From: an uncultured Gemmatimonadales bacterium
GTDB lineage: Bacteria > Gemmatimonadota > Gemmatimonadetes > Longimicrobiales > RSA9
NCBI GenBank assembly: GCA_963798845.1
Contig: CAWCUS010000006.1
Location: 64,001-128,000 of the forward strand
Direction of reading: 5' to 3'
DNA: 64,000 nucleotides
Notes under the pieces: model-generated
The model's input: only the letters and a program-made list of their open reading frames with translations
Database searches by the model: none
What the model was told of the DNA's origin: nothing
Translations under genes and position numbers: made by a program
Shown: in pieces, positions 19,354 through 61,751 of the stretch
Numbering within the stretch: the stretch's first letter is position 1
How the letters are laid out: every line of letters starts with the position of its first letter

Positions 19354-20640
19354 CTAGCCGCCGATCCTCACCAGCTCGACGCGCCGGTTCTGCTGCTTCC
19401 CTTCGGGCGTGTCGTTGCCCGCCACGGGCCGGGCCTCGCCGAATCCGGCGGTCTCCAGCCGGGAGGCGTCGATGCCGTAGCTCTCGACGAGGTAGTCGCG
19501 CACGCTCCCGGCACGCTCACCGGACAGCTGCTGGTTGTAGGCTTCGTCGCCGTCCGAGTCGGTGTGGCCTTCGATCGTGAGGCGCAGCTCGGGATGGTCC
19601 CGGAGCATGGTCCCGATCTGCTCGAGCGTGGGCGTCGACTCCGGACGGATGCGCGCGCTGTTCGTCCCGAAATAGATGCCGCGCGTGGCGACGCGGCCGT
19701 TCTCCGCGAGCGCGTCGTACAGGTCGCGGCCTCCCGCGGCGACCCGGATCGGCCCGATGAGCATCGGGTGCTCCTCGTCCGCCGAGTACGTGTTCTCGAG
19801 GTAGATCCACTCCGTGCGCGCAAGCTCCGCGTTGGGCACGTTCGCCACTCGCCGCTCGTTGACGTAGACCTTCACGTAGCGGCCATCCGCCATGATGCGG
19901 ATGGCCGTCAGCGCCTCGTCCACCGTCCCGGTCACCCGGTTCAGAGCCTCGACGGACGCGCCCTGCCCCTTCTTCACTCCCGTCCCGTTGCGGGCGATCT
20001 GAAACCAGTTGCCCGCGAGCTCGCCCACGTTGCGCTCGGCTCGCTCAGTGGTGACTGCGAGCTGCTGGTTCACCTCCGGGAAGTACACCTCCGTCTCGAT
20101 CGTGAACCGTTCGGGAAGCGCTTCCGGAAGGTGGATGGCGACGGCGCCGTGCCTCGGCCCCGTGTGCCTCAGAAGCCGTCGCCCCTGCCACTCGACGATG
20201 TCCCAGTTGCCGCGCACCAGCTCGACACGGCGGGGGAAGTCTCCCACCTGGTCGGCCGACCAGTCATCGGCGAACAGCACCCGCTCCCCGGGGATGAAGT
20301 CGTAGTTCGCCCACGCCCCCTCGCCGGGCTTCGGAGCCGTGGCCGCCGGCGCCGCCCCGGGATCGGTGATCGGCGCGCCATCCTCGTCGGTGAGCAACGT
20401 TCCGCTGTCGTCCGTCAGGACCACTTCCTTGCCGTCCGCCTGCGCCTGCTCGAGACAGACCGGGTCGTCGAACACGCAGCGCACCTTGCCGCGCACCAGC
20501 TGGTCGATCTGGCTGAGCGTCTCATCCTCCGCCGCCTTCTTCACCGTCTCCTTCACCTTCTTCCAGATCTGCGCGTGCGACGGTGCCGGGGCGAGAAGCG
20601 TCGCGACGATCACGAGCGAAAACGGAATCCGGACGGTCAT
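19354..20640 (-). CDS. OmpA-family peptidoglycan-binding domain protein with signal peptide
   Basis: IYFGTNS, IEGHTDSDG..NQQLSGERA, GFGEARP, NRRVEL; SD GGAGGAG. Confidence 0.92.
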   Translation of the reverse strand: MTVRIPFSLVIVATLLAPAPSHAQIWKKVKETVKKAAEDETLSQIDQLVRGKVRCVFDDPVCLEQAQADGKEVVLTDDSGTLLTDEDGAPITDPGAAPAATAPKPGEGAWANYDFIPGERVLFADDWSADQVGDFPRRVELVRGNWDIVEWQGRRLLRHTGPRHGAVAIHLPEALPERFTIETEVYFPEVNQQLAVTTERAERNVGELAGNWFQIARNGTGVKKGQGASVEALNRVTGTVDEALTAIRIMADGRYVKVYVNERRVANVPNAELARTEWIYLENTYSADEEHPMLIGPIRVAAGGRDLYDALAENGRVATRGIYFGTNSARIRPESTPTLEQIGTMLRDHPELRLTIEGHTDSDGDEAYNQQLSGERAGSVRDYLVESYGIDASRLETAGFGEARPVAGNDTPEGKQQNRRVELVRIGG

Positions 20641-20872
20641 GGCTCCTCCACGGTGAACCAATGCAAGGCGAGCGTACATGCCAAGCGCGAAAACCCGGAC
20701 GAACCCGACAGCCGCCACGGGAGGGGAGCCGCTGGCAGCGCGATGCTCCGCCGGCGTCAGCCGGCGCTTTCCGGCTGACAACCGCTCCGCCATGCCAGCC
20801 TTGCTCGCTCGCCGGTCGGCTCCTACGGTGTCCACCATCCCGGCAAGCGCGTTCTCACCCCCGGAGTCATCG

Positions 20873-34745: not shown

Positions 34746-34777
34746 CACGGCGAACCCGGAACTCGAACCGGACGGAA

Positions 34778-47802: not shown

Positions 47803-50800
47803 ATGTGCCGCAGAAGCCCCACGACCGTCCACCCTCCTTCGCTCCACACGCTTCACCGACTCGCCAGCATCGCTCTGATCGTCGGGGTGGGCGCGGCCGC
47901 GTGCGACCGGACGAGCACCGCCCCGCCCGAGGGGGGCCTCGCGCCGGACCTGCCGGCGGCGGCGATCACGCTCCCGGCCACCACGGTCGCCATCGCTCCG
48001 AACGGGACCTCCACCACGGGGGTCCCGTACATGACGCTGCCGACCGGCTTCTCAATCGTCGCCATCAACGATCACCACGTCGTGCTTGGGACCGGCATAT
48101 CCCCGAGCCACGGCTTCGACTCGCCCATGACCTGGAGCGGCGGCTCCACCCTGACCGACCTGATGCCCGTGAAGGTGTACGATGCGGGTGCGCGCGGGCA
48201 GGACATCAACAACGCGAACCTGGTGACCGGCTACGGCACCTCGGGGTCCGGCGTCACCGCCGCCTGGGTCTGGGACGGGGGGACCACGACCACGCTCCCC
48301 GACCCGCCGAACTTCCGCTCCAACTCCGAGGGCGCCGCGATCGGGGAGTCCGGGTCCGTCCTGGTCAAGTACGAGCGGAACAGCCCGTTCGGCGATGCGG
48401 CCGCCCTGCTCCCCCCGCCATACACGGCCACCGACTATACCGTCCCGGAGCTGCCGGCCGGAACCGACTACAATCTCATCGCGAGAGACTTCGCGGACGG
48501 CCTGGTGGTGGGGCAGTGGTCCGGCATGGCCTGGGTCTCCAGCGGGGGTGACGGCCCGGTGAATCTCATCACCGGGCTCGGCGCGGACGCCACCAACGGC
48601 ACGCTGGTCGCCGGTCGGGCCAGCTTCGATGGGAGCATCCATGCCGCCCTCCTCGACGTCCTCGGCGGGGCGCCCCAGGACCTCGGCACCCTCGGCGGGA
48701 GCTTCAGCGTCCCCACCGCCATGAACGCCAACGGCTGGATCGCAGGGTACGGCCCCCCGGCGGTCGGCGCCAACCACGGGTTCGCGTGGCGGCCGGCGGA
48801 CGGGCTCACGGACCTCGGGACGATCCCCGGCCACACCCTCAGCCAGGCGTACGACATCGACGTCCACGGCCACGTCCTGGGCTTCAGCCAGACCACGGCC
48901 GCGGACCGCGTGCCCGTGATCTGGTTCCCCTACGGCACAGCGACGAACCAGCCCCCGGACGTGGAGGTCATCGGCCCCCAGACCGCGCCGGCAGGCGTGG
49001 AATACGTGCTGGTCCCGGGCGTCACCGACCCCGAGGACGACCCGTTCACCATCTCGTGGAGCGGCGACATCCCGGCCGGCGCCGTCACCGACGGCTCCTT
49101 CACCTGGACCCCCGGGATCGACGACGTCGGTGCCTACACCATCACCGTCACGGCGACCCAGGACAGTGACCCGTCGCTCTTCGACAGCGAGACCTTCCTC
49201 CTGACCGTCGAGGCGCCGGAGCTGCCCGACGCCGACCTGTCGGTCTCGATCGCGCCCGCGGCCGCCGGCCCGTCTCTGATCGGGCAGGAAGCGGGATACG
49301 TGGCGACCATCCACAACGCCGGCCCGGATCCCGTCGTCCCCGAGCTCACCGTGGCCCTGGAGTTCCGGGACCAGTCGGCGTGGGGGGCGCACCCGACCGA
49401 GGCGATCATCAACGGCATCTTCTTCCTCGAGCTCCCGGAGCTCGCGGTCGGAGCATCTGCCGACGTGCCCCTCGGCGTCCAGTTCCTGGCGTTCGGCTCC
49501 CAGCAGGTGACCGCGACCGTCGGCGGGGCGTACAACGACGCGACGTCGACGAACGACGTGTCGAGCCTGCTCCAGGCCGTGGACCTCCCGCTCGACCACG
49601 CCGACCTCGAGCCGGCGGCGCTGGCGGTGCCCGGCACCGCGACGACCGACGGCGAGCCGCTGGTGGTGGTCGGCGTCCGGGTACCGGCCGCCCTCGTCGC
49701 AGGCACCGAGCCCGGCATGCCGGACATGTTCGTGCCGATCACCATGACCCCAACGCTGGTCCCGGGAGACCAGTACGTGCCGGGCGACCAGTACCTGCCG
49801 GGCGACCAGTACCTGCCGGGCGACATGTACGTGCCGGGTGACCAGTACGTCCCGGGCGACATGTACGTACCGGGTGACCAGTACGTGCCGGGCGACCAGT
49901 ACGTCCCGGGCGACCAGTACGTACCCGGCGATCAATACATCCCCGCACGCAACCTATGGGTCGCCGGGATCGCTCGCCTCTCGGACGGCACGACTCCCCC
50001 GGGCCGGGTGCTGCTCCAGGGCAGCGACGGGACCGACCTGCTGGTGTCCGCTCCGGGCGACACGGAGCTGACGGTCGGGATCCGGGACGACGGCGTGCTC
50101 GCCCTGGCGGCGTCGGGCGGCACCATGGACGCGTCGCTCCTGCTCTGCGGCGGCGATTTCGCCGTGTCCATGGGCGGCGGCGACGCGGGCTCGCTGGCGT
50201 GCGGCTCCCTCACGGTCGAGACGCTGGCGGGCGAGATCGTCGTGGAAACGCTGGACGGAACGCTGGTGGCGGTCGCCGCCGGCGCGGCCGTGAGGATCTT
50301 CGAGGCGGTGGGAGGCGGCTGGGAAGCTGAGATCCTCGCCGGCACCTCCGACGACGTGACCATCACTCCGCCGGCTTCGAACGCGCCACCGACAGCCGCG
50401 CCGGGCGGGCCCTACGTCGCCGCCATCGGGACGGCGCTCACCGTGGACGGGACCGGGTCGTCCGATCCCGATGGCGACGCCCTCACGTACGACTGGCACT
50501 TCGATGACGGGAGCGCCGGCGGCATCACGGCCACGGGGCCGACGCCGTCGCTGCCGATGCCGTCCGAGCCCGGGCTGTACACCCTGTCGCTCACGGTTGA
50601 GGACCCTGATGGCGCTTCGTCGACCGCGGCGACGGAGGTCGCCGTGTACGACCCCGACGGGGGCTCGGTGACCGGGGCCGGGTGGTTCGACTCGCCGCCG
50701 GGGGCCATGGCGGCCGATCCGACGGTGGAGGGCCGCGCCACGTTCGGCTTCCACGTCCGGTACAGGAAGGGCCGGTCCACGCCCGAAGGCCACGCGCGGC

Positions 50801-51042
50801 TCACCTTCCAGGCCGGCGACCTCGCCCTGGCGAGCGACCTGTTCGACTGGCTCGTCGTGGGTGGAAGCATGGCGCGTTTCCGGGGCGAGGGGTACCTGGA
50901 AGGCCGCGCCGATCCGGTTCGGTTCGAGATCATCGGCCGGGACCCTGACGAGCTCCGCGTCCGGATCTGGGACGCGGCGGGGGCGATCTACGACAGCGGC
51001 GACGTGGTGCTCGGCGGAGGGCGCATCGTGGTGAAGGACTGA
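47803..51042 (+). CDS. Large exported lipoprotein: HAF-type repeats, Ig-like, DUF11-like, PGDQY repeat tract, PKD and C-terminal beta domain
   Basis: Lipobox-like GAAAC; DLGTLGG..AMNANG repeats; ADLSVSI..NAGPD; NAPPTAAPGGPY..SSDPDGDALTYDW; start uncertain. Confidence 0.85.
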   Translation: MCRRSPTTVHPPSLHTLHRLASIALIVGVGAAACDRTSTAPPEGGLAPDLPAAAITLPATTVAIAPNGTSTTGVPYMTLPTGFSIVAINDHHVVLGTGISPSHGFDSPMTWSGGSTLTDLMPVKVYDAGARGQDINNANLVTGYGTSGSGVTAAWVWDGGTTTTLPDPPNFRSNSEGAAIGESGSVLVKYERNSPFGDAAALLPPPYTATDYTVPELPAGTDYNLIARDFADGLVVGQWSGMAWVSSGGDGPVNLITGLGADATNGTLVAGRASFDGSIHAALLDVLGGAPQDLGTLGGSFSVPTAMNANGWIAGYGPPAVGANHGFAWRPADGLTDLGTIPGHTLSQAYDIDVHGHVLGFSQTTAADRVPVIWFPYGTATNQPPDVEVIGPQTAPAGVEYVLVPGVTDPEDDPFTISWSGDIPAGAVTDGSFTWTPGIDDVGAYTITVTATQDSDPSLFDSETFLLTVEAPELPDADLSVSIAPAAAGPSLIGQEAGYVATIHNAGPDPVVPELTVALEFRDQSAWGAHPTEAIINGIFFLELPELAVGASADVPLGVQFLAFGSQQVTATVGGAYNDATSTNDVSSLLQAVDLPLDHADLEPAALAVPGTATTDGEPLVVVGVRVPAALVAGTEPGMPDMFVPITMTPTLVPGDQYVPGDQYLPGDQYLPGDMYVPGDQYVPGDMYVPGDQYVPGDQYVPGDQYVPGDQYIPARNLWVAGIARLSDGTTPPGRVLLQGSDGTDLLVSAPGDTELTVGIRDDGVLALAASGGTMDASLLLCGGDFAVSMGGGDAGSLACGSLTVETLAGEIVVETLDGTLVAVAAGAAVRIFEAVGGGWEAEILAGTSDDVTITPPASNAPPTAAPGGPYVAAIGTALTVDGTGSSDPDGDALTYDWHFDDGSAGGITATGPTPSLPMPSEPGLYTLSLTVEDPDGASSTAATEVAVYDPDGGSVTGAGWFDSPPGAMAADPTVEGRATFGFHVRYRKGRSTPEGHARLTFQAGDLALASDLFDWLVVGGSMARFRGEGYLEGRADPVRFEIIGRDPDELRVRIWDAAGAIYDSGDVVLGGGRIVVKD
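49762..49941 (+). repeat. 10 x 18-bp coding tandem repeat, PGD[QM]Y[VLI]
   Basis: Counted directly; synonymous codon variation between units. Confidence 0.97.
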
Positions 51043-51059
51043 CCCCCGGATCGCCGTCG

Positions 51060-51102
51060 ACGCGCGGCCCGGCCGTCCTCTTCCGGCGGCCGGGCCGCGC
51101 GT
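51060..51102. terminator. Strong hairpin between convergent genes (possible bidirectional terminator)
   Basis: Perfect 16-bp stem ACGCGCGGCCCGGCCG / CGGCCGGGCCGCGCGT with an 11-nt loop; no U tract. Confidence 0.6.
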
Positions 51103-51116
51103 GCGTCGAGGATCCC

Positions 51117-53660
51117 TCAGCGAGCGGCAGTACCTGCCGCCTCCGACGCCAGTACGCACTCCTCCAGGTACTTGGGCGGCGCGTGCGGGTCGGCCCTCAG
51201 GAGCGCCAGTCCGGTCCGGAGCTGGGAGTCCCCCTCCGGCCCGGTGCCGGTCCGCGCCAGCGCCGCTCCCAGCCGGCACCGCGCCACGCCGATGGCGTAG
51301 TGCTCCGCGGGCAGCGCAGCCTCGAGGATGTCGAGCGCGCCGCGGGCCACCTCCGCCGCTTCCGTCGGCCGGTCCAGCTTCAGCAGGATCCCGGCCCGGG
51401 TAAGAAGCGGGTATGCGCGCACCGGATGGCCGGGCGCGGTGGTCCGGAGGAAGATCTGGTGGGCGCGGGCGGCGAGGGAGTCGGCCTCGGACAGCGCGCC
51501 CAGATCCTGGAGGGCGCTCGCGAGGTTCTGCATGCTGTCGCCGACGCCGGTGTTCCAGTCTGTACCGGCCATCCGCCGCCGAGCCCGCAGAAGGGCCCGG
51601 TGGACCTCGACGGCCTCGAGGGTCCTGCCGGCCTTCTGATAGGTCGTGGCAAGGTTGTTGAGCGTGGTGAGGGTCTGGTTGTGGTCGGGCCCGGCTGTAC
51701 GCTCGAGGACGGGCAGCGCGGTCCGGTACAGACGGATGGCCTCATCGTAGAGGAGCCGCTTGTCGAGCACCGCAGCGAGCTGGACCGCCGCGAGGGCGGT
51801 GCTCGGGTGGGCCTCGCCCCGGTCCGTGCGCGTGATCTCGAGCGCTTCCCGGGCCGCCCGCTCGGCGGCGTCCAGCCTTCCCTCCACGGCGTACCCGTAG
51901 GCGAGGTGTCCCAGCACACCGGCGACTTCCGCCCGGTACCGCGGACCCGCCGACCGGTAGATGGAAAGAGCCTCCTCGCCCAGGGCGGGATCGGCCGGCG
52001 GCAGCCGGGTCAGCTGCAGCCACATCAGCTCCCCCAGCGCCTCCGCGAGTCGCGGGTCGTCCGCGGGAACGGAGCTCCGGAGCGTTCCGACCGCGCGCCT
52101 CAGCAGGACGGCGGCCGAGTCCCAGTTCTCCCCCCGGAGCGTCGCGGCCAACGTCAGGAGGTCGGACGCGAACTCGGGCGTGGCCTCCAGCCCGGCCGCG
52201 CTCCGGATGGCCACCGCCTCCTCGATCACGAGCCGGGCGCGTCCCGGCCGGTCGATGCTGTACAGCACGGAAGCCACCGCCGCCAGAAGATCGGCGCGGG
52301 CCACGGGATCGTCCCGGAGGTCGGTCCTGATGCGGTCCACTGCGGGGTCGAGGGCTTCGGCTACTGTCAGGTCGGGTCGCGCCGGGTCCTCGCTCTTGAA
52401 CGGATCTGCGCTTCGGAACAGGTCGACCAGGAACCCCTTTATGCGCTCGGCCCGTTCCGCCTGGACACTCGCCGCGTTCCGCTCCCGCTCCAGCCGCTGG
52501 ATGCCGACGACCAGCGTCCCGACATACGAGGTGAGGCCCAGGAGCAGGAGCGCGGCCACGGGCGGCGCCCAGCGGTTCCGCCGCGCCCATTTCCAGACAC
52601 GCAGCCATCCCGGGGTGGGCCGGGCCGTGATCGGCCGCCCCTCGCGGTGGCGGCGGATGTCCTCGGCGAGGGCCTCCACGGACGCATAACGGTCGCCGGG
52701 CTCGAGAGCCAGCGCCTTGAGGACCACGGTGTCGAGCTCCCCGGTGAGCCCCGTCGTGTCGCCGGCTTCACGGTCCAGGGGCCCGCCGCCGGTGAGAAGG
52801 GCGTGGAGCACCAGCCCCAGCTGGTACACGTCGGAAGCCGTCGTAACGGTCCCGCCGCGGCGCTGTTCCGGGCTCGCCCATCGTCTCGTCTGGGGAGCCG
52901 CGCCGACCTCCGTCAGGTCGGCCGCGGCACGGGGGTCCAGGACCTTGGCGATGCCGAAGTCCAGCAGCTTCACGCGCCCGGAGGCGTCCACGAGGATGTT
53001 CGCGGGCTTCAGGTCGCGGTGGACCACGAGGTGCCGGTGCGCCTCTCCCACCGCGGCGGCCACCTGAAGGAAGAGATTCAACCGGGCCGGCTGCGACAGC
53101 TCCCGTTCGGCCGCCCACCGGGTGATGGCCACGCCGTCGACCTTCTCCATCACGAAATAGGGGCGGCCATCCTCCGTCGCCCCCCCGTCCAGCATGCGCG
53201 CGACGTTGGGGTGTGCGAAGTCCGAGAGGATCTGCCGCTCGGCGAGGAAGCGCTCCACGACCCGGTCCGTGTCGAGGCCACGCCGTAGGACCTTGAGTGC
53301 GACGACCTGCCGGTACGCCCCGTCGATCCGCTCGGCCTCGTAGACGGTCGCCATGCCGCCGACGCCCAGCTCTCCGACGACGCGGTAGCGGTCCACCACG
53401 TCCCCGACCGACAACGCACCGCTGGCGACCGGGTCGGAAGCCAGTGCCGCGGCCACGAGCTGCGGCCCCGGGCGCGATCCGCGTTCGTCGCCCGTCTCGA
53501 GCGCGGCCAGGAGGCGGTGCACGGCCGCCGCGAGGGCTTCGTCATCGCCGCAGCGAAGCCGAAGCAGACGCTCACGGTCGGCCGGAAGGTGGTCCAGGAC
53601 CTCCTCGAACACACGATCGACCTCTTCCCATCGCGACCAGATGGTGTCTCGCTCGGCCAT
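51117..53660 (-). CDS. Membrane Ser/Thr protein kinase with TPR array
   Basis: GVGGMA, VALK, HRDLKPAN, DFG, WASPEQ; TM helix; TPRs; paralogue of 34778-37453. Confidence 0.95.
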   Translation of the reverse strand: MAERDTIWSRWEEVDRVFEEVLDHLPADRERLLRLRCGDDEALAAAVHRLLAALETGDERGSRPGPQLVAAALASDPVASGALSVGDVVDRYRVVGELGVGGMATVYEAERIDGAYRQVVALKVLRRGLDTDRVVERFLAERQILSDFAHPNVARMLDGGATEDGRPYFVMEKVDGVAITRWAAERELSQPARLNLFLQVAAAVGEAHRHLVVHRDLKPANILVDASGRVKLLDFGIAKVLDPRAAADLTEVGAAPQTRRWASPEQRRGGTVTTASDVYQLGLVLHALLTGGGPLDREAGDTTGLTGELDTVVLKALALEPGDRYASVEALAEDIRRHREGRPITARPTPGWLRVWKWARRNRWAPPVAALLLLGLTSYVGTLVVGIQRLERERNAASVQAERAERIKGFLVDLFRSADPFKSEDPARPDLTVAEALDPAVDRIRTDLRDDPVARADLLAAVASVLYSIDRPGRARLVIEEAVAIRSAAGLEATPEFASDLLTLAATLRGENWDSAAVLLRRAVGTLRSSVPADDPRLAEALGELMWLQLTRLPPADPALGEEALSIYRSAGPRYRAEVAGVLGHLAYGYAVEGRLDAAERAAREALEITRTDRGEAHPSTALAAVQLAAVLDKRLLYDEAIRLYRTALPVLERTAGPDHNQTLTTLNNLATTYQKAGRTLEAVEVHRALLRARRRMAGTDWNTGVGDSMQNLASALQDLGALSEADSLAARAHQIFLRTTAPGHPVRAYPLLTRAGILLKLDRPTEAAEVARGALDILEAALPAEHYAIGVARCRLGAALARTGTGPEGDSQLRTGLALLRADPHAPPKYLEECVLASEAAGTAAR

Positions 53661-53709
53661 CGCTCTTCGTGGATAGGGGACGGGTTACACGGTGGCGGGA
53701 CCTGGCCGG

Positions 53710-54303
53710 TCAGTGCGCCGGTTGCGTCCCCTCGGGCCCGGGCACCGGATCCAGCGCCGCCAGCAGATACGCTCGCGCCCGCGTCCATTCCCGGACGACC
53801 GTGCGCGGAGAGGCTCCGATCGCCTCGGCGGTCTCGTCAATGGAAAGCCCCCCGTAGAAACGGCACTCGACGACCTTCGCCATCCGCTCGCTACGGGCGG
53901 CGAGGGCGTCCAGAGCCGCCTCGACCTGGAGGATGTCGACCGCCTGGCCATCCGCGACATCCTCCGCCTCCGCGAGGGGAACCCTGACGCGCGTTCCGCC
54001 CCTCTTCTCCGCGGCCCGCGTGCGCGCGTAATCGATCAGGATCCGCCTCATGACCTTCGAGCAGAAGGCGAAGAAGTGGGCCCGGCTGGGCCACACGCCC
54101 TCGTGACCCCCCGCCAGGCGGAGGTACGCCTCGTGGACCAGCGCCGTCGCGTCGATCGTCGGATCCGCGCCGTCCAGCCGCACGTGCCGTCGGGCCAGTC
54201 GCCGCAGCTTCGGGTATGTCAGCGCCATCAGCTGTTCGAACGCGGCGTCATCGCCGTCACTCCAGCGCTGCGCTAGCTCCGTGATGTCGTCCATCGGGGC
54301 CAT
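53710..54303 (-). CDS. ECF sigma factor, Ser/Thr-kinase-associated type
   Basis: TIDATALVHEAYLRL, MRRILIDYAR, VECRFYGGL, VVREWTRARA. Confidence 0.93.
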   Translation of the reverse strand: MAPMDDITELAQRWSDGDDAAFEQLMALTYPKLRRLARRHVRLDGADPTIDATALVHEAYLRLAGGHEGVWPSRAHFFAFCSKVMRRILIDYARTRAAEKRGGTRVRVPLAEAEDVADGQAVDILQVEAALDALAARSERMAKVVECRFYGGLSIDETAEAIGASPRTVVREWTRARAYLLAALDPVPGPEGTQPAH

Positions 54304-54407
54304 GCACTCGCTCGCTCCTTCCCGCGCCGCGAGGGGCTCAGAGTCCGGGAAAGTCTGCCCCCGGCAGCGTCACCGAGGACCGGCGTCAGGCGGTCGAGCC
54401 GCGCACG

Positions 54408-56390
54408 TCAGCGCACGATAGAGCTCATCACGCGCTCGTAATGGAGCCCACGGATCGCGGCTTCGAACGCCTTCTTAAGCTTGATCCCGGGGAACCTGTG
54501 CTGGCGCGCACGCGCTTCGAAATAGCGGCGGGCCTCCTCGCAGACCATGCGCACGTCCGCCACCGTCGGCCGCCCGGCGGCTGCGCGCTCCCGGATTCTG
54601 GCGATCCTCTCCTTCACCTCCGCCATGCTCAGGTCGGGGCGGAAGCGCACCAGGTATTCCTGGGCGAGCCCGGCGAGCTCCCCCACGCGCTGCGCGTCCG
54701 GGAGCCAGCGGCCGACGCCGTCATCCCGGAGGCGGCGGGCCAGGCGGCCAAGGCCTCGCGCCTCACGGCGCGACGCCCGGCCAAGGCGCACGTCGAGCCG
54801 TGACGCCGACCAGAGGAGAGCGAAGTAGCGCCGGTCCAGGCGCGCGATGCCCTGCATCCAGACGGACGCCGCTGCGCCCTTGAGATAGCCCAGGTCCAGC
54901 TTCATGGGTGCGAACAGGTGGTGCCGCACGGTCGACACGGTGTCATACGCGCGACGGTAGATCTCCACTGAGTTGAAGAGGCGGGAGAGGATCTCACGGA
55001 TGCCCGTCTCCAGCTCCGCCGCGCTCATTCGACGCGGCTCCAGCTGGACCGCGTCGTCGGTGTTGTTCCCGGTGAACTCCGCCTGACGCAGCCGTCCCTC
55101 CCGCTTGAGCCGCTCGTACAGCGGGGTGAACGGCACCGGCGTCAGCATGCCGGTCATGGCCGTGAAGATCCGGGTGCGCTTGACGAACTCCACGATCCGG
55201 TCCACCGTGGACGGCGTGTCCTCGTCCCCCCCGAGGATGAAGCCGGCGAACACCTCGATGCCGGAGGCCTGGAGCGTGCGGATGCTCCCGGGCACGTCCA
55301 CCTTGATGTTCTGCTTCTTGTTCATCTGCCGGAGCGCGTCGGGATCGGGATTCTCGATCCCCAGGAACACGGCCTGGAAGCCCGCCAGCCGCATCTTCTC
55401 GACCAGGTGCGCCAGCTTCGGCGTCCCGAGGTTGACGCTCGCCTGCGTGAGGAAGGCGAACGGATAGCCGTGCTCGTGCTGGAAGTCGATCATGGCGTCC
55501 AGCACCGCGGAGATCCCCTCGGGCGAGCCGATGAAGTTGTCGTCCACGCTGAACACGCCGCCACGGAAGCCCGTCGCGAGGATCGCCTCCAGCTCGCGCC
55601 GTACCACCGCCGGCGGCTTCGGTCTGTTGAACCCGCCATTGAACTGGACGATGTCACAGAAGTCGCACCGGAACGGGCAGCCGGCGGTGGTCTGGATCAT
55701 CATGGACTCGTAGTCGCTCACCCGCACCAGGTCCCAGCGCGGCAGCGGCACATCGTCCAGCGGCAGGAAGATGGAGCGGTCGTTGAGGTACTCCCGGGAC
55801 CCGGGCTCCACCCGCGCGACGGCCTCCGGGATCAGCAGCCGGGGCGCCCCCGCCTCGTGCGTCGGAGCGCCGTCCAGCCACTGCATCAGCGAACCGATCG
55901 CGCCACCCGCCTCGCCCCATACCAGCACGTCCAGTGCTTCGTGGAGGGTCCGGTCCGACTCCGAGGTCGGGTGCAGGATCTCCTCCCTGTAGGACGACGC
56001 CAGTGGGCCGCCCAGCACGACCGGCGTTCCCGTCCCCCGGGCCGGGCCCTCCAGCACTCGCACCAGCGACCTCTTCTGGATCGACATGGCGCTGGCGAAC
56101 ACCACGTCGGCCGCGGCGATCTTCCGGCGCAGCTCCGAATCGGATGGCACCCCGACGTTCAGATCCACCAGCTCCAGCTCCCACGATTCCGGCAGGTAGC
56201 CCGCGAACGCGAGCAGTCCCAGCGGCGGGAAGGTGGCCTTGCGGCCGATCAGCCGAAGGATGTACCTGAAGCTCCAGAACGAGTCGTACGGGAACTCGGG
56301 GACCAGGAGGAGAGCCCGCTTCGAATCGGGGCGCTCGGAGCGCTCCGGTTCACGGGTTTCCCGGCTGGCCGGACTCGCCGGTGTCGGCAC
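54408..56390 (-). CDS. Cobalamin-binding radical SAM enzyme (class B; DUF4070/HpnP-like architecture)
   Basis: SFWSF..FPPLGLL..LVDLNV and VLGGP (B12-binding domain), GCPFRCDFC (CxxxCxxC), VDDNFIG, FLGIE, GFILGGD; GTG start inferred. Confidence 0.92.
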   Translation of the reverse strand: MPTPASPASRETREPERSERPDSKRALLLVPEFPYDSFWSFRYILRLIGRKATFPPLGLLAFAGYLPESWELELVDLNVGVPSDSELRRKIAAADVVFASAMSIQKRSLVRVLEGPARGTGTPVVLGGPLASSYREEILHPTSESDRTLHEALDVLVWGEAGGAIGSLMQWLDGAPTHEAGAPRLLIPEAVARVEPGSREYLNDRSIFLPLDDVPLPRWDLVRVSDYESMMIQTTAGCPFRCDFCDIVQFNGGFNRPKPPAVVRRELEAILATGFRGGVFSVDDNFIGSPEGISAVLDAMIDFQHEHGYPFAFLTQASVNLGTPKLAHLVEKMRLAGFQAVFLGIENPDPDALRQMNKKQNIKVDVPGSIRTLQASGIEVFAGFILGGDEDTPSTVDRIVEFVKRTRIFTAMTGMLTPVPFTPLYERLKREGRLRQAEFTGNNTDDAVQLEPRRMSAAELETGIREILSRLFNSVEIYRRAYDTVSTVRHHLFAPMKLDLGYLKGAAASVWMQGIARLDRRYFALLWSASRLDVRLGRASRREARGLGRLARRLRDDGVGRWLPDAQRVGELAGLAQEYLVRFRPDLSMAEVKERIARIRERAAAGRPTVADVRMVCEEARRYFEARARQHRFPGIKLKKAFEAAIRGLHYERVMSSIVR

Positions 56391-56688
56391 GTGACCGCCT
56401 TCTGTACTCGGGTGGCTGCGCGGATCGCTCGCATGGGGCGGCGCTCCATGAACATCAGTTCCGGGCTCCGCCAGCGCAAGCGAGACCCGTCCCACTCCGA
56501 CTGCGACCCGCCGCCCCTGCCCCGGCCGCACCGCCCCCACGCCTTCAATCCTGAGCCCACGCCAGCGGGATCAGGCAGCCCAGCAGCTTCGGGGCTCTCC
56601 GGACCTGGCTCGGCTCCGGCTCTTCCAGCTCATGACCCGGCGCCACCATCCGGCGCAACCGGTTCCGGGTAGCCGATGTCGCAGCCCT

Positions 56689-56745
56689 TCTCCTTGACAA
56701 GTTAGGAGAGCGGAGCGCATCCTGTTCCCAACCTGAATAGGAGAA
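56689..56745 (+). promoter_or_regulatory. padR promoter with palindromic operator over the -35
   Basis: TCTCCT-TGACAAGTT-AGGAGA contains TTGACA; CATCCT lies 18 nt downstream; a weaker second site overlaps the SD. Confidence 0.65.
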
Positions 56746-56748
56746 CCG

Positions 56749-57090
56749 ATGGCTGAACAGGCCGACCTCCTCCCCGGCACGCTGGACCTCCTCATCCTCA
56801 AGGCCGTTTCCCTCGGGAAACTGCACGGCTACGGCGTGCTGCTCCGAATCGAACAGATCTCCGGGGGTGCGCTCGAGATCCAGCAGGGGGCGTTGTACCC
56901 GGCGCTGTACCGATTGGAGCACCAGGGGCTGATCGAGAGCGAGTGGGGGAAGTCGGAGAACAACCGGCGCGCGAAGTTCTACAGGCTGACGGCGGCGGGC
57001 CGTGGTCGGCTGGGCGAGGAGGAGGCGAGCTGGAAGCGACTGGTGGCGGCGATGACGGCGGCGCTGAACGCGACGCCACAGGAGATCTGA
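56749..57090 (+). CDS. PadR family regulator (acidobacterial ADOP-associated type)
   Basis: PGTLDLLILKAV..LHGYGV..QGALYPALYRLE..ENNRRAKFY. Confidence 0.95.
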   Translation: MAEQADLLPGTLDLLILKAVSLGKLHGYGVLLRIEQISGGALEIQQGALYPALYRLEHQGLIESEWGKSENNRRAKFYRLTAAGRGRLGEEEASWKRLVAAMTAALNATPQEI

Positions 57091-57091
57091 G

Positions 57092-59818
57092 GTGTCGATC
57101 TTCCCCTCCCGGGCCCCCGCGGGCTTCGCCGCGCGACTTCGGTCGCTCTGGCACGGTCTCCGGCGCCGGGAAGCGATCGAGGCGGAGATGAAGGAGGAGT
57201 TCCGTCACCATATCGCACTCCGGACCGAGGACCTGGTGGAGCGGGAGGGGCTGTCGTGGAAGGAGGCGTACAGACGGGCACGGCTCGAGTTCGGCCACGT
57301 GGAGGGGCACCGCGAGGACGCGCGCGCGTCTCGGGGACTGCGCTGGTTCGACGAGCTGGGGTTCTCGTGGCTCGACGTGAAGCTCGGTCTCCGGATGGTG
57401 GCGAGGAGCCCCGGCCTGACGCTCGTCTCCACGTTCGCGCTCGCCATCGGGATCCCGGTGGGGTTGGCTCCCGCACACTTCGTCGACGGTCTGCTGGCAC
57501 CGCTGCCGGTGCCCGAGGGGGAGCAGATCCGCCTGCTTCGCCTGTGGAGCCCCGCGCTGGGCCGCACGACGGCGACGACGACCCACGACTACGAGACGTG
57601 GCGGAGCTCCCTCTCCACGTTCGAGGGGATCGCCGCCTTCCGGCAAACCGCGTACAACGTCGACCTCGAGAACGGGGGCTGGACCGTGGTTCGCGGAGCG
57701 GAGGTCACGGCGTCGGCGTTCTCGATTCTACGGGTGCGCCCGCAGCTGGGACGTCCGATCCTGGCAGCGGACGAGGTGCCGGGTGAGGGGCGCGTGGTGG
57801 TGATCGGCCACGACCTCTGGCAGGCCCGGTACGGGGGCGACCCCGGGATCGTCGGACGCTCCGTCGACCTGAGCGGGGTGTCCCGGACGGTGGTGGGCGT
57901 GATGCCGCCAGGCTTCCGGTTCCCGACGCACGAGAGCGTCTGGACGCCGTTGCAGGTCGTGCCCGGTGGGCCGGCCGGATCGGCCGAGAACGTCCGGGTC
58001 TTCGGCAGGTTGGCCGACGGCGTCCCCGATGCCCGGGCCCGCACGGACCTCGCCCTGGCAGCCGAACGGTCCGCGGTGCCGGGGCGCGATCGGCGCACGG
58101 TCGCCCAGGTGAAGCCCTTCGCCTACATCGCGCTTCCGGGCCTGGGTGGCGGGCTGAGAGCGACGCCCGAGTTCCTGGGCTTCCAGAGCCTGGCGCTCCT
58201 CGTCCTCCTGGTCGCGTGCATCAACGTGGCGATGCTCGTCTTCGCGCGCACCGCCACCCGGTCGAGCGAGCTGGCCGTGCGCACGGCGCTCGGCGCGAGC
58301 CGGGCACGGATCGTCCTCCAGGTCTTCGTCGAGTGCCTGGTCCTGGCGCTGCTGGCCGCGGGCGCGGGCCTGCTCCTGCTGACCGCCGCGCTCCAGCTCA
58401 TGTGGCGGGTGATCCCGGCCTCGTGGGCGGCGGCGAGCCCCTACTGGATCCGGTGGGACATCGGTCCCGACACCGTGATCCGCGCCCTGGCGCTCGCGGG
58501 CGCCAGCGCCGTGGTTGCCGGCGTGGTCCCCGCGATACGATTCACGGGCAGACAGGTGCAGGGCACCATCCAGCGGGCCCGCGCCAGGCGCACGGGCGTC
58601 CGGTTCGGGGGCCTGCCCGGCGTGCTCCTGGTCGTGGATGTCGCCGTGGCCGTGGCCGCGGTGGGATTCGCCCTGACCGCATGGGACGTGACCCAGGGCG
58701 CCGGTTCGGCCGCAAACGGGGTGGGCATCGACGCCGACGAATACCTGGCCGCGGCGATCCGGCTCCCTTCGGACCCCGCCGAGCCCCGGGGCGCAACCGG
58801 CCCGGAGCGGGGGGCGAGCCGGCGGGCCATCGTGCAGGAGGAGCTCGTGCGGCGGCTCCGCGAGGAGCCCCGGGTGCAGGGCGTGGCGTTGGCCGACGTC
58901 CTGCCCAGGATGGACCACCCCAGTCGTCTCGTGGAGGCCGAAGGCGTGGCCGCCCCCGACGGCGGCCGGGGCGTCTCCACCCGGATCGCCCGGGTGGCCG
59001 TCGATTTCTTCGAGTCTCTGGACCAGCCCATCCTGGCCGGGCGTGATTTCGACACCGGTGACCTGGCGGACGGCAGCGGGGTCGTCATCGTGAACACCAC
59101 GTTCGTCGAGCGCGTGCTCGGAGGGCAGAACGCGGTCGGACGCAGGGTCCGGTTCGTCCCGTGGGGCGACGGCGAGCCGGGCCCATGGAAGGAGGTCGTG
59201 GGCGTGGTCGGCCACCTGGGGATGCGGGCCGTGTCGCCGGACAACGACCAGGGGGTGTACGAGCCGGTCGCCCCGGGCGAGCTGGAGACGGTGCGGCTGG
59301 GCATACACCTGGCGGATGATCCTGCCGCGTTCGCCCCGCGCCTCCGGGAGGTGGCGGGCGACGTCGCGCCGGACCTGCTCCTGTCCGCAGTGGGCCCGCT
59401 GGGCGAGGTCTTCGAGGGTGACTGGTACCTGCTCCGGGCCGTGATCCTGGGCGCCTGGCTGCTGGTGTCCGTCCTCCTTGCGCTGGCCGCGTCCGGGATC
59501 TTCGCGATCATGTCTTTCTCGGTGGCGGAGCGAACCACGGAGATCGGCATCCGTTCCGCGCTGGGCGCGAGCCGGCGCGACGTGGCCGTTTCGGTGGCAC
59601 GCCGGGCCATGGCTCAGATCGGGGTGGGAGTCCTGCTCGGGCTCCCGGTCGCCGCCCTCTTCCTGGTCGACGGCGACGGCTCGCGGTACCTGGGTGCCGG
59701 GAAGACCCTCGTCGTCGGGATCGTGGTCATGAGCGTGGTTGGCCTCGCGGCCTGCACGGGACCCACCCTCCGCGCACTGCGGATCCAGCCGCGCGAGGCA
59801 CTCAACGGAGACGGCTGA
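57092..59818 (+). CDS. ADOP-type duplicated ABC permease with N-terminal prefix domain
   Basis: EEFRHHIALR..ARLEFG, CINVAMLVFAR..ELAVRTALGA, EIGIRSALGA, IQPREAL. Confidence 0.92.
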   Translation: MSIFPSRAPAGFAARLRSLWHGLRRREAIEAEMKEEFRHHIALRTEDLVEREGLSWKEAYRRARLEFGHVEGHREDARASRGLRWFDELGFSWLDVKLGLRMVARSPGLTLVSTFALAIGIPVGLAPAHFVDGLLAPLPVPEGEQIRLLRLWSPALGRTTATTTHDYETWRSSLSTFEGIAAFRQTAYNVDLENGGWTVVRGAEVTASAFSILRVRPQLGRPILAADEVPGEGRVVVIGHDLWQARYGGDPGIVGRSVDLSGVSRTVVGVMPPGFRFPTHESVWTPLQVVPGGPAGSAENVRVFGRLADGVPDARARTDLALAAERSAVPGRDRRTVAQVKPFAYIALPGLGGGLRATPEFLGFQSLALLVLLVACINVAMLVFARTATRSSELAVRTALGASRARIVLQVFVECLVLALLAAGAGLLLLTAALQLMWRVIPASWAAASPYWIRWDIGPDTVIRALALAGASAVVAGVVPAIRFTGRQVQGTIQRARARRTGVRFGGLPGVLLVVDVAVAVAAVGFALTAWDVTQGAGSAANGVGIDADEYLAAAIRLPSDPAEPRGATGPERGASRRAIVQEELVRRLREEPRVQGVALADVLPRMDHPSRLVEAEGVAAPDGGRGVSTRIARVAVDFFESLDQPILAGRDFDTGDLADGSGVVIVNTTFVERVLGGQNAVGRRVRFVPWGDGEPGPWKEVVGVVGHLGMRAVSPDNDQGVYEPVAPGELETVRLGIHLADDPAAFAPRLREVAGDVAPDLLLSAVGPLGEVFEGDWYLLRAVILGAWLLVSVLLALAASGIFAIMSFSVAERTTEIGIRSALGASRRDVAVSVARRAMAQIGVGVLLGLPVAALFLVDGDGSRYLGAGKTLVVGIVVMSVVGLAACTGPTLRALRIQPREALNGDG

Positions 59819-60160
59819 GGGGCCCGGCCTCTCGCCACCGGCCCCGGCTCAACCCGGTACCGCCCCCATAGCGGCCCCTCTCTCGCCTTCACGGCCACCG
59901 GGGCGCCGAAATCAGCTCACCCCACTTTCCGCCAACCGACTGGTCCGTATAGTCAAGCCGCCGCCGAACTTCGCCTCGCTGGACGGGTCCGCCGCGACGC
60001 GTGCACAGAATTTCGCATCGCGGACGAACGCTGAATTTGCACGATTCTGCGGATTCCCGGTCCATGTTCCCCGCGTAGATTGGAGCCTCCGCCGGTCGTG
60101 CATGCGACCGCCGCCGTGATCCGGCCCGCCAGCTCACCGATCGCTCCACAGGAGGCCGCC

Positions 60161-60460
60161 ATGTACGTGATCCGCGAAGTCCTGAACTGCAAGCCGGGCA
60201 ACGTCCGTCCGATGGTGGAGAAGTTCAGGGTCCTGTCCGCCGCGCTGGAAGAGATGGGAGAGCCGCCGCTCCGTCTGCTGACGGACGTCTCTGGCGAGCG
60301 GTTCTGGACGCTCGTGTCCGAGGTGACCGTGGAGCGGGTGGACGATTTCTTCGCGCTCGAGGAGCAGCTCATGGCGAACAGCACCGTGCGCGAAGCCATG
60401 GCGGACTATCACGGGCTGGTGGAGCGCGGCCGGCGGGAGATCCTCCGCATCGAGGGTTGA
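60161..60460 (+). CDS. Small protein, possibly NIPSNAP-like dimeric alpha/beta barrel
   Basis: SD AGGAGG; MYVIREVLNCKPG..RLLTDVSGERFWTLVSE..LVERGRREILRIE. Confidence 0.75.
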   Translation: MYVIREVLNCKPGNVRPMVEKFRVLSAALEEMGEPPLRLLTDVSGERFWTLVSEVTVERVDDFFALEEQLMANSTVREAMADYHGLVERGRREILRIEG

Positions 60461-60732
60461 GGCTGCGGAGCGGGGGGCGAGGGACGGCGCGTCCTGGTAC
60501 GTGCCGTCCACTCCCACGATCCGGGCGCCTGATCGGCCGAGGTGGTCGACGTCAAGGGCGTGCCGCCGTCCGAGGAGCTGGGTTCCTGAGGCGTAGCTCG
60601 ACATCGGCCCCGGTCGCCTGTGGCGGGAGTCCCCGAGTTTTCTCGCTCTAATCCAGGGGCGCGACACGCTCCCTCGCCGGCCGCCTGCGCATCTCCGCGC
60701 AGGCGTCGGCCGTTGACCCGTGCGAGGAGCCC

Positions 60733-61359
60733 ATGATGCAAAGCCGCGATCCTCATGTACCGCGCAACGAGAGGAAGGCCTCCGCGATGATGGCGTGCGC
60801 TGTCGTCGTCGCCTGCCTCGTGACCTCCGTCGGCGCACCACCCGCGGTCCTTCGCGCCCAGGGCGTGGGCGTAGCGATAGGGGCCAATTTCGACAGGCAA
60901 AGCGAAATCACCAAGACCACTCAGCCGTTGGACGCCGGGGAGGTCCTCACCCGAGGACTCACGATCAGCCTCTCGGGAGAGCGGCCGGTGGACGCTCGCC
61001 TGTACGCCGTCCTGATCCGCAATCGCCGCGCCGGTGCTCCCTGGGCCTCTCATGCCTTTCGCCTGAACCCTGGGACTCACCGCCTCCCGGGCGATCAATT
61101 CATCCCGGGCGACCCATTCATCCCGGGCGACCAGTTCATCCCGGGCGATCAATTCGTCCCGGGCGATCAGTTCATCCCGGGCGACCGATTCTCCAAGGAA
61201 GCCCGCGAGATCGCCGAGACGGGGGTTGTCTTCGACGGAGCCAGAGTCGATTGGGAGAGGCAGTCCGTCCTCTATCTGGTCATCGTTCCCGCGAGTTCCG
61301 AGGAAGCCGCTGCCAGCCGGGTCCAGGCCGCCGCCTTCATCCTCGGCAACCGCCGGTGA
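60733..61359 (+). CDS. Exported hypothetical protein with PGDQF hexapeptide repeats
   Basis: GAGGAG SD; hydrophobic signal ending LRA-Q; repeat tract in frame. Confidence 0.8.
   Translation: MMQSRDPHVPRNERKASAMMACAVVVACLVTSVGAPPAVLRAQGVGVAIGANFDRQSEITKTTQPLDAGEVLTRGLTISLSGERPVDARLYAVLIRNRRAGAPWASHAFRLNPGTHRLPGDQFIPGDPFIPGDQFIPGDQFVPGDQFIPGDRFSKEAREIAETGVVFDGARVDWERQSVLYLVIVPASSEEAAASRVQAAAFILGNRR
61087..61194 (+). repeat. 6 x 18-bp coding tandem repeat, PGD[QPR]F[IVS]
   Basis: Counted directly: PGDQFI PGDPFI PGDQFI PGDQFV PGDQFI PGDRFS. Confidence 0.97.
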
Positions 61360-61574
61360 TCTTCCCGGCCACCTCCGGGTCGATCTCGCCCGTGCGCTTG
61401 TCGAACAGGCGCCTGGGGTAGCCGTCGTGGCCCTGGGAGGAGGAGTGGGGGACGAAGCTGTCGAAGCCGTTTCTCAAGGGCGACATGCGTTTCCTCACCC
61501 CGGACCGTGCGGCCGAGGCGCGGGCCTGGATCTTCCGGGACTGACGCGCTGGCCAGGCCCGCGTCGGGGAGGGG

Positions 61575-61751
61575 ATGACGGTACGGGAACGACCCACGGT
61601 GAAGAACAAGCTCGAGGTCCTCCGCGCCCAACGGGGGTTCGGTTCTCGTACGGCCTGGTCGCGACCGCCTCGCAGTGCCCTCGCCCCTACCATCCCGGCC
61701 GCGAAGACCTGCGGCGCGCGACCTGTCGGGCGGAGCGTCGCGAGCGGCTAG
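61575..61751 (+). pseudogene. N-terminal remnant of an XRE-family HTH regulator
   Basis: GGAGG-ATG; VKNKLEVLRAQRG resembles an XRE N-terminus, then the similarity is lost. Confidence 0.45.

Follow-up and report, generated by a model that had tools for sequence, protein, structure and literature searches.

PGDx[FY] hexapeptide-repeat proteins and a lectin-like/OmpA protein as candidate outputs of an ECF43-type sigma/kinase pair

The DNA analyzed here, referred to as the window, is a 64-kb stretch (64,000 nucleotides) of the genome of an uncultured Gemmatimonadales bacterium (4,262,375 bp, 70% G+C). It encodes two exported proteins, P0001 and P0002, that carry tandem arrays of the hexapeptide P-G-D-x-[FY]-hydrophobic and lie on either side of a sigma factor/Ser-Thr kinase gene pair of the extracytoplasmic function (ECF) group ECF43. 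We conclude that these carriers, together with a lectin-like/OmpA protein encoded in the same window, are probably accessory envelope proteins controlled by an ECF43-type sigma/kinase switch, to which they may also talk back. Gene linkage and a shared upstream motif suggest that the carriers belong to the regulon of such a switch. An initial annotation of the window had combined the two carriers and a cobalamin (B12)-dependent radical SAM enzyme encoded between them into one system, and this grouping did not hold when other genomes were compared.

Results

Two arrays in otherwise dissimilar exported proteins

P0001 (47803..51042, + strand) is a putative lipoprotein of about 1080 aa with the N-terminal sequence ...IVGVGAAAC. 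Its domains include a weak HAF repeat match, a He_PIG-like Ig domain (residues 389-469) and a DUF11-like domain (478-588). Beyond the array (654-713) follow an unassigned beta-rich stretch, a PKD domain (860-947) and then a C-terminal domain. A word-index protein search with residues 715-860 gave no match. The array itself (49762..49941, +) consists of 10 x PGD[QM]Y[VLI] with an 18-bp unit, CCGGGCGACCAGTACGTG. In translation, units 1-5 read PGDQYV, PGDQYL (twice), PGDMYV and PGDQYV, and units 6-10 read PGDMYV, PGDQYV (three times) and PGDQYI.

P0002 (60733..61359, +) is a 208-aa exported protein with a Sec-type signal and a predicted Ig/FN3-like beta-sandwich split by the repeat loop. Its array (61087..61194, +) consists of 6 x PGD[QPR]F[IVS] with the unit CCGGGCGATCAATTCATC, which uses the AT-rich codons GAT and CAA. 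The translated units at residues 119-154 are PGDQFI, PGDPFI, PGDQFI, PGDQFV, PGDQFI and PGDRFS. Translation thus confirmed both arrays as they had been described initially. Tandem Repeats Finder reported both as 18-bp arrays, with 9.4 copies and 86% matches in P0001 and 5.6 copies and 89% matches in P0002. Each array arises by tandem duplication, not by chance. The codons differ between the two (GAC CAG TAC in P0001, GAT CAA TTC in P0002). A six-frame regular-expression search of the whole 4,262,375-bp genome, relaxed patterns included, revealed no third array.

The G+C content at third codon positions (GC3) of P0002 is 0.78, compared with 0.86-0.93 in the adjoining genes, and GAT and CAA are unusual codons at 70% G+C. 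This bias could reflect recent acquisition or selection against slippage.

When a profile of the P0002 family was compared with P0001, the repeat alone aligned, over 52 columns. The two carriers therefore share no other similarity, in agreement with the initial annotation.

P0001 has an orthologue in G036, a genome of the same family as the source genome. The two proteins are 56% identical over 1018 aa. The orthologue also has 10 units, and its gene lies directly downstream of an ECF->kinase pair on the same strand. The units of the G036 gene (L125:9573-10475, -) are nearly identical in DNA, with seven identical 18-mers, whereas those of P0001 have diverged (86% matches). Between the two genes the number of units is conserved, although the units themselves are homogenized.

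P0002 represents an unannotated protein family

P0002 aligns over its full length with 25 small carriers at 18-33% identity (alignment A1). All have in common a Sec or twin-arginine signal, then a block rich in strands that ends in ...S..F....G, the array, a short helix and a final strand block. By tblastn, L089, L021 and L124 are 55-58% identical to residues 47-208. P0001 does not belong to this family, as its repeat is the only part that aligns.

Pfam returned nothing real for any of the 26 family members (26/26), and NCBIfam returned nothing for P0002. A word-index protein search with P0002 gave seven matches, all named "hypothetical protein". A literature search found no paper on a PGDxF/PGDxY hexapeptide repeat; its matches were prostaglandin D synthase and similar. 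The statement in the initial annotation that the repeat has no named family therefore stands. When the family profile was searched against 1.84 billion representative proteins, 226 matched at E<=1e-3 and 76 at E<=1e-10, most of them 175-220 aa long. By these searches, the family of P0002 is small and unannotated.

The AlphaFold2 (AF2) model of P0002, built from the family alignment, has a mean predicted local distance difference test (pLDDT) score of 67.7. It shows an Ig/FN3-like sandwich in which the blocks at residues 70-120 and 170-208 score 75-91. Residues 128-153 of the array have no strands and pLDDT <50, a low confidence that is no proof of disorder. We read the modeled array as a flexible loop between confident beta-strands. 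A fold search with the model matched generic Ig/FN3-like sandwiches only (best Z 6.9), so no specific family can be assigned to P0002. A look-up of P0002 in the ESM Atlas was uninformative (scores <=0.76).

The repeat is found in exported proteins of many phyla

To find other carriers, a degenerate DNA pattern for three PGDx[YF]x units was searched in one-genome-per-species contigs, and at least 117 stretches matched. Read in frame, the listed stretches contain 115 carrier open reading frames (ORFs) in 112 non-duplicate loci, and the counts below refer to those listed. The motif P-G-D-x-[FY]-hydrophobic is thus present in at least 112 loci from many phyla. Among the listed matches, carriers occur in Flavobacteriaceae and other Bacteroidota, Gemmatimonadota, Caulobacterales/Maricaulis, Sphingomonadales, Lysobacterales, Woeseiaceae, Balneolales, Myxococcota and Chloroflexota, and also in Halobacteriota.

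Although the search pattern left position six free, 104 of the 115 ORFs, all from other genomes, have L, F, I or V there, and this recurrence is the non-trivial point. The remaining 11 (such as PGDGYD and PGDSFG) come mostly from Actinomycetota and look like unrelated low-complexity sequence. The residue at x differs from protein to protein (Q 30, M 24, T 15, S 11, H 11, A 8, others), yet it is uniform within 101 of the 115 ORFs. The aromatic residue is F in 96 and Y in 19. Arrays have 3-14 units, with a median of 5.

The hosts comprise small secreted proteins (170-230 aa), flavobacterial ones of 350-400 aa, and larger ones in which Beta_helix, Laminin_G_3, PQQ propeller or DUF6517 domains occur. 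All listed architectures are extracytoplasmic in type (exported or surface). For this reason, the proposal in the initial annotation that the repeat is a portable module of surface proteins was right; the hosts range from the Ig-like sandwich through beta-helix, Laminin_G_3 and PQQ propeller proteins to the PKD/HAF lipoprotein.

Two groups of carriers have further features in common. Flavobacterial carriers (L005, L006, L007, L028, L044, L048, L055, L062, L065, L066 and L068) combine a lectin-like N-terminal domain with the array domain, and next come one or two secreted, ~300-aa proteins that lack a Pfam family; in L068, two carriers lie 5.4 kb from each other. Twin-arginine signals are found in the PGDMF-type carriers (L001, L018, L022, L039, L051, L053). 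Directly downstream of PGDMF carriers, on the same strand, lies a gene for an FAD-dependent oxidoreductase of ~320-360 aa (FAD_binding_3/DAO/Lycopene_cycl-like), for example at L018:10257-11336 (+) and L039:5086-6087 (+). No homologue of this oxidoreductase was found in the source genome by tblastn.

The neighboring sigma factor and kinase are of the ECF43 type

The sigma gene (53710-54303, -) and the kinase gene (51117-53660, -) lie between the two carriers. The sigma factor matches Pfam Sigma70_ECF (PF07638) with E 8e-47 over residues 4-184 (profile positions 1-183 of 185) and TIGR02999 with 194 bits against a cut-off of 126. Its region sigma2.2 reads IDATALVHEAY, which places a Thr at the ECF43 phospho-acceptor position before ALVxEAY and leaves one Asp. 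Three sigma paralogues in the genome read ETTA, STTE and HATS at sigma2.2. In EcfK, according to the accessible portion of PMC13147305, sigma2.2 is QATE, with one acidic residue kept.

The kinase has 847 aa, with an N-terminal extension of ~90 aa, a Pkinase domain at 92-303, one hydrophobic span at ~363-387 and an extracytoplasmic region with tetratricopeptide repeats (TPRs) at ~560-810 (TPR_12 three times). Its start at 53660 lies 49 nt past the sigma stop codon (53710-53712), on the same strand. As given in the accessible portions of the PMC7826278 supplement, PMC13147305 and PMC8999054, ECF43 is defined by a Sigma70_ECF Pfam domain, Ser/Thr in place of the acidic DAED motif and, at +1, a kinase with one transmembrane helix and extracytoplasmic TPRs. 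By sequence, the window pair fits this definition, as it has PF07638, the Thr in sigma2.2 and, at +1, a TPR kinase with one hydrophobic span.

This pair, and not the radical SAM gene, is the conserved neighbor of the carriers; the initial annotation had listed an ECF/Ser-Thr kinase pair among the intervening genes without singling it out. With the window proteins as tblastn queries, an ECF homologue was found in 20 and a Ser-Thr kinase (STK) homologue in 21 of 117 listed carrier loci. With two duplicate loci set aside, 17 of the 112 loci have both no more than 10 kb from the array; for loci that extend at least 5 kb to either side of it, the figure is 13 of 49. For the P0002 family (alignment A1), the count is 14 of 24 loci. 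ECF, STK and carrier genes are adjacent or operon-like in L010, L014, L018, L020, L047 and L073. Cultivated strains that have the cassette include Maricaulis alexandrii (L043) and Sphingosinithalassobacter portus (L014). The gene order varies: it is carrier->ECF->STK in L010 and ECF->STK->carrier in L020 and L008, and L018, L047 and L073 have divergent pairs 190-220 nt apart.

G062, G064 and G065 (2.8-3.9 Mb) each have a single strong PF07638 sigma factor, and in each it lies beside the carrier. The source genome has four PF07638 sigma factors and two arrays, both less than 7 kb from the same sigma gene, one on either side. We roughly estimate the chance of such closeness at ~1% per carrier. 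All carrier-linked kinases have TPR_12 (16/16), in a set that was gathered by similarity to the window kinase.

A second ECF43-type sigma/STK-TPR pair (34020-37453, +) is encoded in the window, with PF07638 at 34179-34712 and a kinase ORF at 34376-37453. The kinase domain begins at residue 230 of this ORF, so the real start lies later. This pair is a possible alternative regulator of the carriers. The two ECF43 paralogues of the window are 35-57% identical to carrier-linked sigma factors, with identities evenly spread, which singles out neither as their orthologue. The second pair stands back to back with genes for a TamA-like Omp85 protein (31657-34314, -) and TamB (26762-32104, -).

A promoter-like motif precedes some carriers

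Seven of 28 family carriers (P0002, L014, L020, L021, L033, L051 and L073) have an ECF-like motif, TGGCGG-N16-18-CG[CT]T, in the 300 nt that precede them. The opposite strand of these regions has the motif in 2 of 28, and the background frequency is 0.017 per 300 nt (60 sites in 1.08 Mb). The site of P0002, TGGCGGGAGTCCCCGAGTTTTCTCGCTCTAA (60621..60651, +), lies 112 nt upstream of the gene, in the 272-nt gap after the ORF at 60080-60460. When the genome was scored with a position weight matrix (PWM) made from 14 sites of other genomes only, this site ranked third of ~8.5 million positions. The other top PWM sites (C5:212438, C4:378885 and others) lie inside or close to ORFs without a family or genes for a MoxR ATPase, a histidine kinase or an FkbM methyltransferase, from which we draw no regulon. 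A scan of the P0002 region for sigma-70 promoters and terminators found nothing.

Copies of the motif also stand before the lectin/OmpA-carrier operons of L029, L031 and L033, before the ECF gene in L033 and in L039, and before the kinase gene in L029. L033 has four perfect sites in 6 kb, and L010 has a close variant before its carrier. Two further sites in the window have one mismatch, and we regard them as suggestive only. One is intergenic, 82 nt before the ATG of P0001 (47721..47752, +; TGGCGCG...N...CCGTTCC). The other, TGTCGGGTTCGTCCGGGTTTTCGCGCTTGG (20679..20710, -), lies ~70 nt upstream of the lectin/OmpA start.

A lectin-like/OmpA protein accompanies the carriers

The gene at 19357..20640 (-) encodes a 428-aa protein with a signal peptide, a ConA-type jelly roll and an OmpA domain (PF00691, E 3e-25). 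It is an orthologue (59% identity) of a lectin/OmpA protein that is linked to carriers elsewhere, and it lies 40 kb from P0002. In Gemmatimonadota, a gene for a lectin/OmpA protein of ~460 aa immediately precedes the carrier in L029, L031 (twice) and L039; in L033 the two genes are convergent. Fusion of the lectin/OmpA protein to the carrier domain is seen in L021 (693 aa) and G001/L124 (701 aa); the carrier part of the latter is 55% identical to P0002. In L014 (Sphingosinithalassobacter), an OmpA-type C-terminus ends just before the ECF gene.

The lectin/OmpA and P0002-type domains form one 701-aa ORF in G001, a genome of the same genus; here they are split over two genes that lie 40 kb from one another and each encode a signal peptide. 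The two arrangements differ by a recent fission or fusion.

No Pfam match was obtained for the lectin-like domain of 19357-20640. The AF2 model of the protein has a pLDDT of 65.6, with residues 140-300 at 74-88. Foldseek matched the jelly-roll domain to ConA-like lectin folds, namely galectin-like 1oq1, Emp46/47, CBM66 and the lectin-like subdomain of clostridial toxin binding domains, a likeness of fold only. TM-scores normalized to the target were 0.5-0.67 for the galectin-like, L-type lectin and CBM66 structures. Flavobacterial carriers have this domain (GDFP...EFDAYF) as their N-terminal half (BLASTP E 4e-4 and 2e-6). Because fusions, gene adjacency and this flavobacterial N-terminal domain recur, three modules (lectin-like, OmpA, and Ig-like with array) occur fused or split according to lineage.

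The radical SAM enzyme is not conserved with the repeat

The gene at 54408-56540 (-) encodes a protein with B12-binding, Radical_SAM and DUF4070 domains, all three of the class B domains. Alignment with its orthologues begins at residue 74, which makes a later true start probable. These orthologues are found on four Gemmatimonadota contigs (65-72% identity) and in two metagenome-assembled genomes (MAGs) with archaeal labels (54-55%). The latter, L122 and L123, labeled Nanoarchaeia and Methanosarcinales, match over 640 aa, which could reflect gene transfer or mis-binning.

The initial annotation had proposed a check of co-occurrence between the repeat and this radical SAM clade. When this check was run by tblastn, a homologue was found in 1 of 117 listed carrier loci (L074), with 28% identity and ~8 kb from the array. 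None of the six orthologue loci has an array (0/6) or an ECF sigma gene (0/6), and they have no common neighbor. G036 keeps the ECF-STK-P0001 cassette and has no radical SAM match at E<=1e-30. G001 has a carrier and, as its radical SAM protein, only a 37% paralogue. The idea of one system made of two carriers and a B12 radical SAM enzyme thus finds no support in other genomes. Against NCBIfam, the enzyme reached no equivalog: it scored 65 of the 600 bits needed for the PhpK family, 63 of 481 for BchE, 31 of 360 for the MCR (methyl-coenzyme M reductase) Gln methylase and 43 of 750 for ApyD.

The radical SAM and ECF genes lie on the same strand, the former 104 nt upstream, and a scan of this junction found no terminator-like site or sigma-70 promoter. 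Given this gap and the lack of a terminator-like site, the gene may be co-transcribed with ECF->STK in this genome. The ECF-like motif was not found upstream of the radical SAM gene.

Other genes of the window

The gene map between the carriers was as first described except for one small gene. Between the radical SAM gene and P0002 lie genes for a PadR regulator (56749-57090, +) and an ADOP-type permease (57092-59818, +). The small gene before P0002 is more likely the ORF at 60080-60460 (+; 126 aa, GC3 0.87) than the one at 59953-60399 (-), judged by codon-position G+C (GC1 of the latter is 0.49). No family was found for either.

The PadR/ADOP pair was rejected as a part of the system, as it recurs in 2 of 117 listed carrier loci. 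A fatty acid desaturase and a 148-aa ORF were likewise rejected (0/117). The desaturase gene (46407-47534, -) adjoins P0001, 3.6 kb from the kinase gene, and has no homologue in the 117 listed carrier loci. In the accessible part of the PMC7826278 supplement, the conserved context of ECF43 subgroup 1 includes a (transposase-fused) fatty acid desaturase. The window holds many envelope genes (TamA/TamB, OmpA, ADOP permeases). One ORF of 1240 aa at 5266-8985 (+) combines a CheB methylesterase, a CheR methyltransferase, PAS domains and a histidine kinase.

Discussion

A possible mechanism

In the regulatory reading that we prefer, the transmembrane kinase would sense an envelope cue through its periplasmic TPR domain and would phosphorylate the sigma factor on the Thr of region 2.2, a step assumed here from the family. 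The sigma factor would then transcribe the repeat carriers and the lectin/OmpA gene from TGGCGG-N16-18-CG[CT]T promoters, and their products would be exported and tethered to peptidoglycan. For the role of the array itself and its binding partner, we infer a multivalent, flexible, acidic-aromatic peptide brush that would bind a periplasmic partner. The most attractive candidate for this partner would be the TPR sensor of the kinase itself, which would provide feedback.

We favor the display of a multivalent, flexible short linear motif as the function of the array. Five of six positions are held across phyla while x is free; P0001 and its 56%-identical orthologue both have 10 units; and the low-confidence array model may be read as disorder, with TPR peptide-binding domains as the linked sensors. 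A bolder version takes the arrays as periplasmic ligands of ECF43-type TPR kinases, with each unit a motif for the TPR groove. We consider it unlikely. According to this version, the 3-14 units would cluster or sequester several kinase sensor domains and so set the phosphorylation state of the sigma factor, and the lectin/OmpA partner would tie the device to peptidoglycan, where it would report envelope geometry or damage. If true, it would be a new kind of bacterial transmembrane signaling, in which a multivalent repeat protein acts as a kinase ligand, from Gemmatimonadota to Proteobacteria.

Points against regulation by the pair

Several observations speak against the proposed regulation. 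Nine of the 24 P0002-family loci have no ECF/STK within 10 kb. Their neighbors include the mraZ/dcw cluster (Balneolales) and the FAD oxidoreductase downstream of Tat-signal PGDMF carriers, among others. In G001, the carrier is on contig C1 and the only strong ECF43 sigma gene is on C5, and no motif was found near the carrier. Flavobacterial carriers adjoin a hybrid two-component sensor (Reg_prop/Y_Y_Y/HK/REC/AraC) or a LytTR response regulator; these loci keep the theme of a sensor beside a carrier, with a different sensor. Arrays are present in 3 of 61 related genomes, and the carriers are therefore accessory, not core. The linkage counts overstate the significance, because related lineages are not independent. 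In a look-up of sequencing data sets for positions 52000-61900, the entries were three DNA metagenomes of one study, with shares of 0.18 or less, and none was RNA.

The promoter motif has weaknesses as well. It was found before 2 of the 13 ECF genes checked and before neither ECF gene of the window. The sites before P0001 and the lectin/OmpA gene have one mismatch each. A relaxed form of the motif is unspecific, with 39 matches in the 64-kb window, and the P0001 site is for that reason not significant alone. The predicted ECF43 promoter, in the accessible part of the PMC7826278 supplement, has GTC at -35 and CAG at -10, to which the TGGCGG motif shows no obvious match.

Alternative explanations

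Two alternatives accept the arrays and differ in what they do. In one, the carriers are purely structural, and the array binds peptidoglycan, an outer-membrane lipid or a cation together with the lectin/OmpA protein, while the sigma/kinase pair regulates without any contact between array and kinase. The fusions and operons with OmpA peptidoglycan-binding and ConA-like lectin domains, the mraZ/dcw cell-wall cluster beside Balneolales carriers, and the one Asp and two hydrophobic residues of each unit all agree with such a role. It leaves the TPR sensors of the linked kinases (16/16) unexplained, yet TPRs are the usual sensor of ECF43 kinases anyway (PMC7826278 supplement, in its accessible part). 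Nothing speaks directly against this alternative. It shares the regulon step with the reading we prefer and differs only in the partner of the array. We rate it as rather unlikely. The other alternative seems quite unlikely: the array would be a mere flexible low-complexity spacer grown by replication slippage, and its closeness to the sigma/kinase pair would reflect a general clustering of envelope genes. The array pLDDT of <50, the diversity of the hosts, and arrays homogenized in 101 of 115 listed carriers with 3-14 copies are as slippage would leave them. The nine of 24 family loci without the pair and the richness of the window in envelope genes such as TamA/TamB, OmpA and ADOP permeases are also in line with clustering. 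A mere spacer, however, would not explain why five of six positions are held across phyla, including the unfixed sixth (104/115 listed), or why P0001 and its 56%-identical orthologue both have 10 units. Clustering in turn fits poorly with three genomes whose single ECF43 sigma lies beside their single carrier, with a promoter motif common to several phyla, and with the recurrence of lectin/OmpA fusions.

It is most improbable that the carriers are substrates of the radical SAM enzyme, with C-methylation or some other modification of the PGDx[FY] units, either in the manner of a RiPP (ribosomally synthesized and post-translationally modified peptide) or as a protein modification. The location of its gene, between both carriers and directly upstream of ECF->STK with a 104-nt gap on the same strand, makes this idea attractive, as do the three class B domains and the weak similarity to peptide and P-methylase models. 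However, the homologue in 1 of 117 listed carrier loci is only 28% identical, the six orthologue loci have neither a carrier nor a shared neighbor, the G036 cassette comes without an enzyme match at E<=1e-30, and G001 has the 37% paralogue only. The scores against NCBIfam RiPP and peptide radical SAM models are far below the cut-offs (ApyD 43 vs 750), and no motif was found upstream of the enzyme gene. The initial suggestion of a RiPP-like substrate also disagrees with the carriers themselves: they are 208 and about 1080 aa long and have Sec/Tat or lipoprotein signals and folded domains, and they are not leader-core peptides. In the PGDMF clade, the FAD oxidoreductase is a more plausible candidate for a modifying enzyme than the radical SAM protein. 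The radical SAM/RiPP reading, tempting but unsupported, can thus be removed.

Significance and comparison with known systems

Phosphorylation-switched sigma factors (ECF43) are a recently established signaling route. The known phenotypes in the two cases studied are polymyxin resistance for one and, for the other, a type VI secretion system required to resist predation by amoebae. The genes that accompany such a pair across phyla, namely those for a secreted Ig-like protein with a strict aromatic repeat and for a lectin-like/OmpA protein, together with a shared promoter motif, are candidates for the output and the sensor partner of the ECF43 pathway. A protein family without annotation and a portable repeat motif of bacteria and haloarchaea are defined here as well. 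The repeat, the P0002 family and their ties to ECF43, lectin/OmpA and the promoter were not found in Pfam, NCBIfam or the searchable literature.

The transferase hexapeptide repeat (Pfam Hexapep) forms a left-handed beta-helix and has a six-residue period with a hydrophobic position. The present repeat has the same period and a hydrophobic position, but its consensus is Pro-Gly-Asp plus an aromatic residue, and its hosts are exported proteins, not cytoplasmic acyltransferases. The Hexapep profile had no match at E<=0.01 in P0001 or P0002, nor at E<=0.1 in the 26 family members, and AF2 models the array, at low confidence (pLDDT <50), as a loop with no helix of strands. Elastin-type elastomeric repeats, such as VPGVG, contain Pro-Gly turns. 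Like these, the arrays consist of short tandem Pro-Gly units predicted to have no fixed structure; unlike them, they have a conserved Asp and an aromatic-hydrophobic pair, and their 3-14 units are looped into a folded bacterial domain.

PoyC and the MCR Gln/Arg methylases are reportedly class B (cobalamin) radical SAM methylases that act on peptides or proteins. The window enzyme has the same B12-binding, radical SAM and DUF4070 domains, but it reached no equivalog and is not co-conserved with the repeat. Compared with OmpA proteins that carry ConA/LamG-type lectin domains, the lectin/OmpA protein has the same C-terminal OmpA domain and jelly-roll domain; the recurrent fusion to an Ig-like PGDxF-array domain is not described in the sources searched.

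The sigma/kinase pair is of an already known kind. That the cognate kinase phosphorylates its sigma factor is described for EcfP/PknT of Vibrio parahaemolyticus and EcfK/PknS of Xanthomonas citri in the accessible portions of PMC13147305 and PMC8999054. The window pair has the same whole-length Sigma70_ECF match and the Thr in place of the acidic sigma2.2 motif, and likewise an immediately downstream kinase with an N-terminal extension, one transmembrane span and periplasmic TPRs. As far as the accessible part of PMC13147305 describes it, the architecture of PknS is that of the kinase found here, and the signal for the kinase TPR domain is given there as unknown. The accessible part of the PMC7826278 supplement lists a kinase, an Fpg glycosylase and a transposase/fatty-acid-desaturase as the conserved ECF43 context. 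A conserved repeat-bearing secreted protein and a lectin/OmpA partner, which distinguish the present loci, are not mentioned in the accessible portions of PMC13147305, PMC8999054 and PMC7826278. The host also differs: it belongs to Gemmatimonadota, whereas the ECF43 classification of PMC7826278, in the part accessible, is based on a Proteobacteria-only set.

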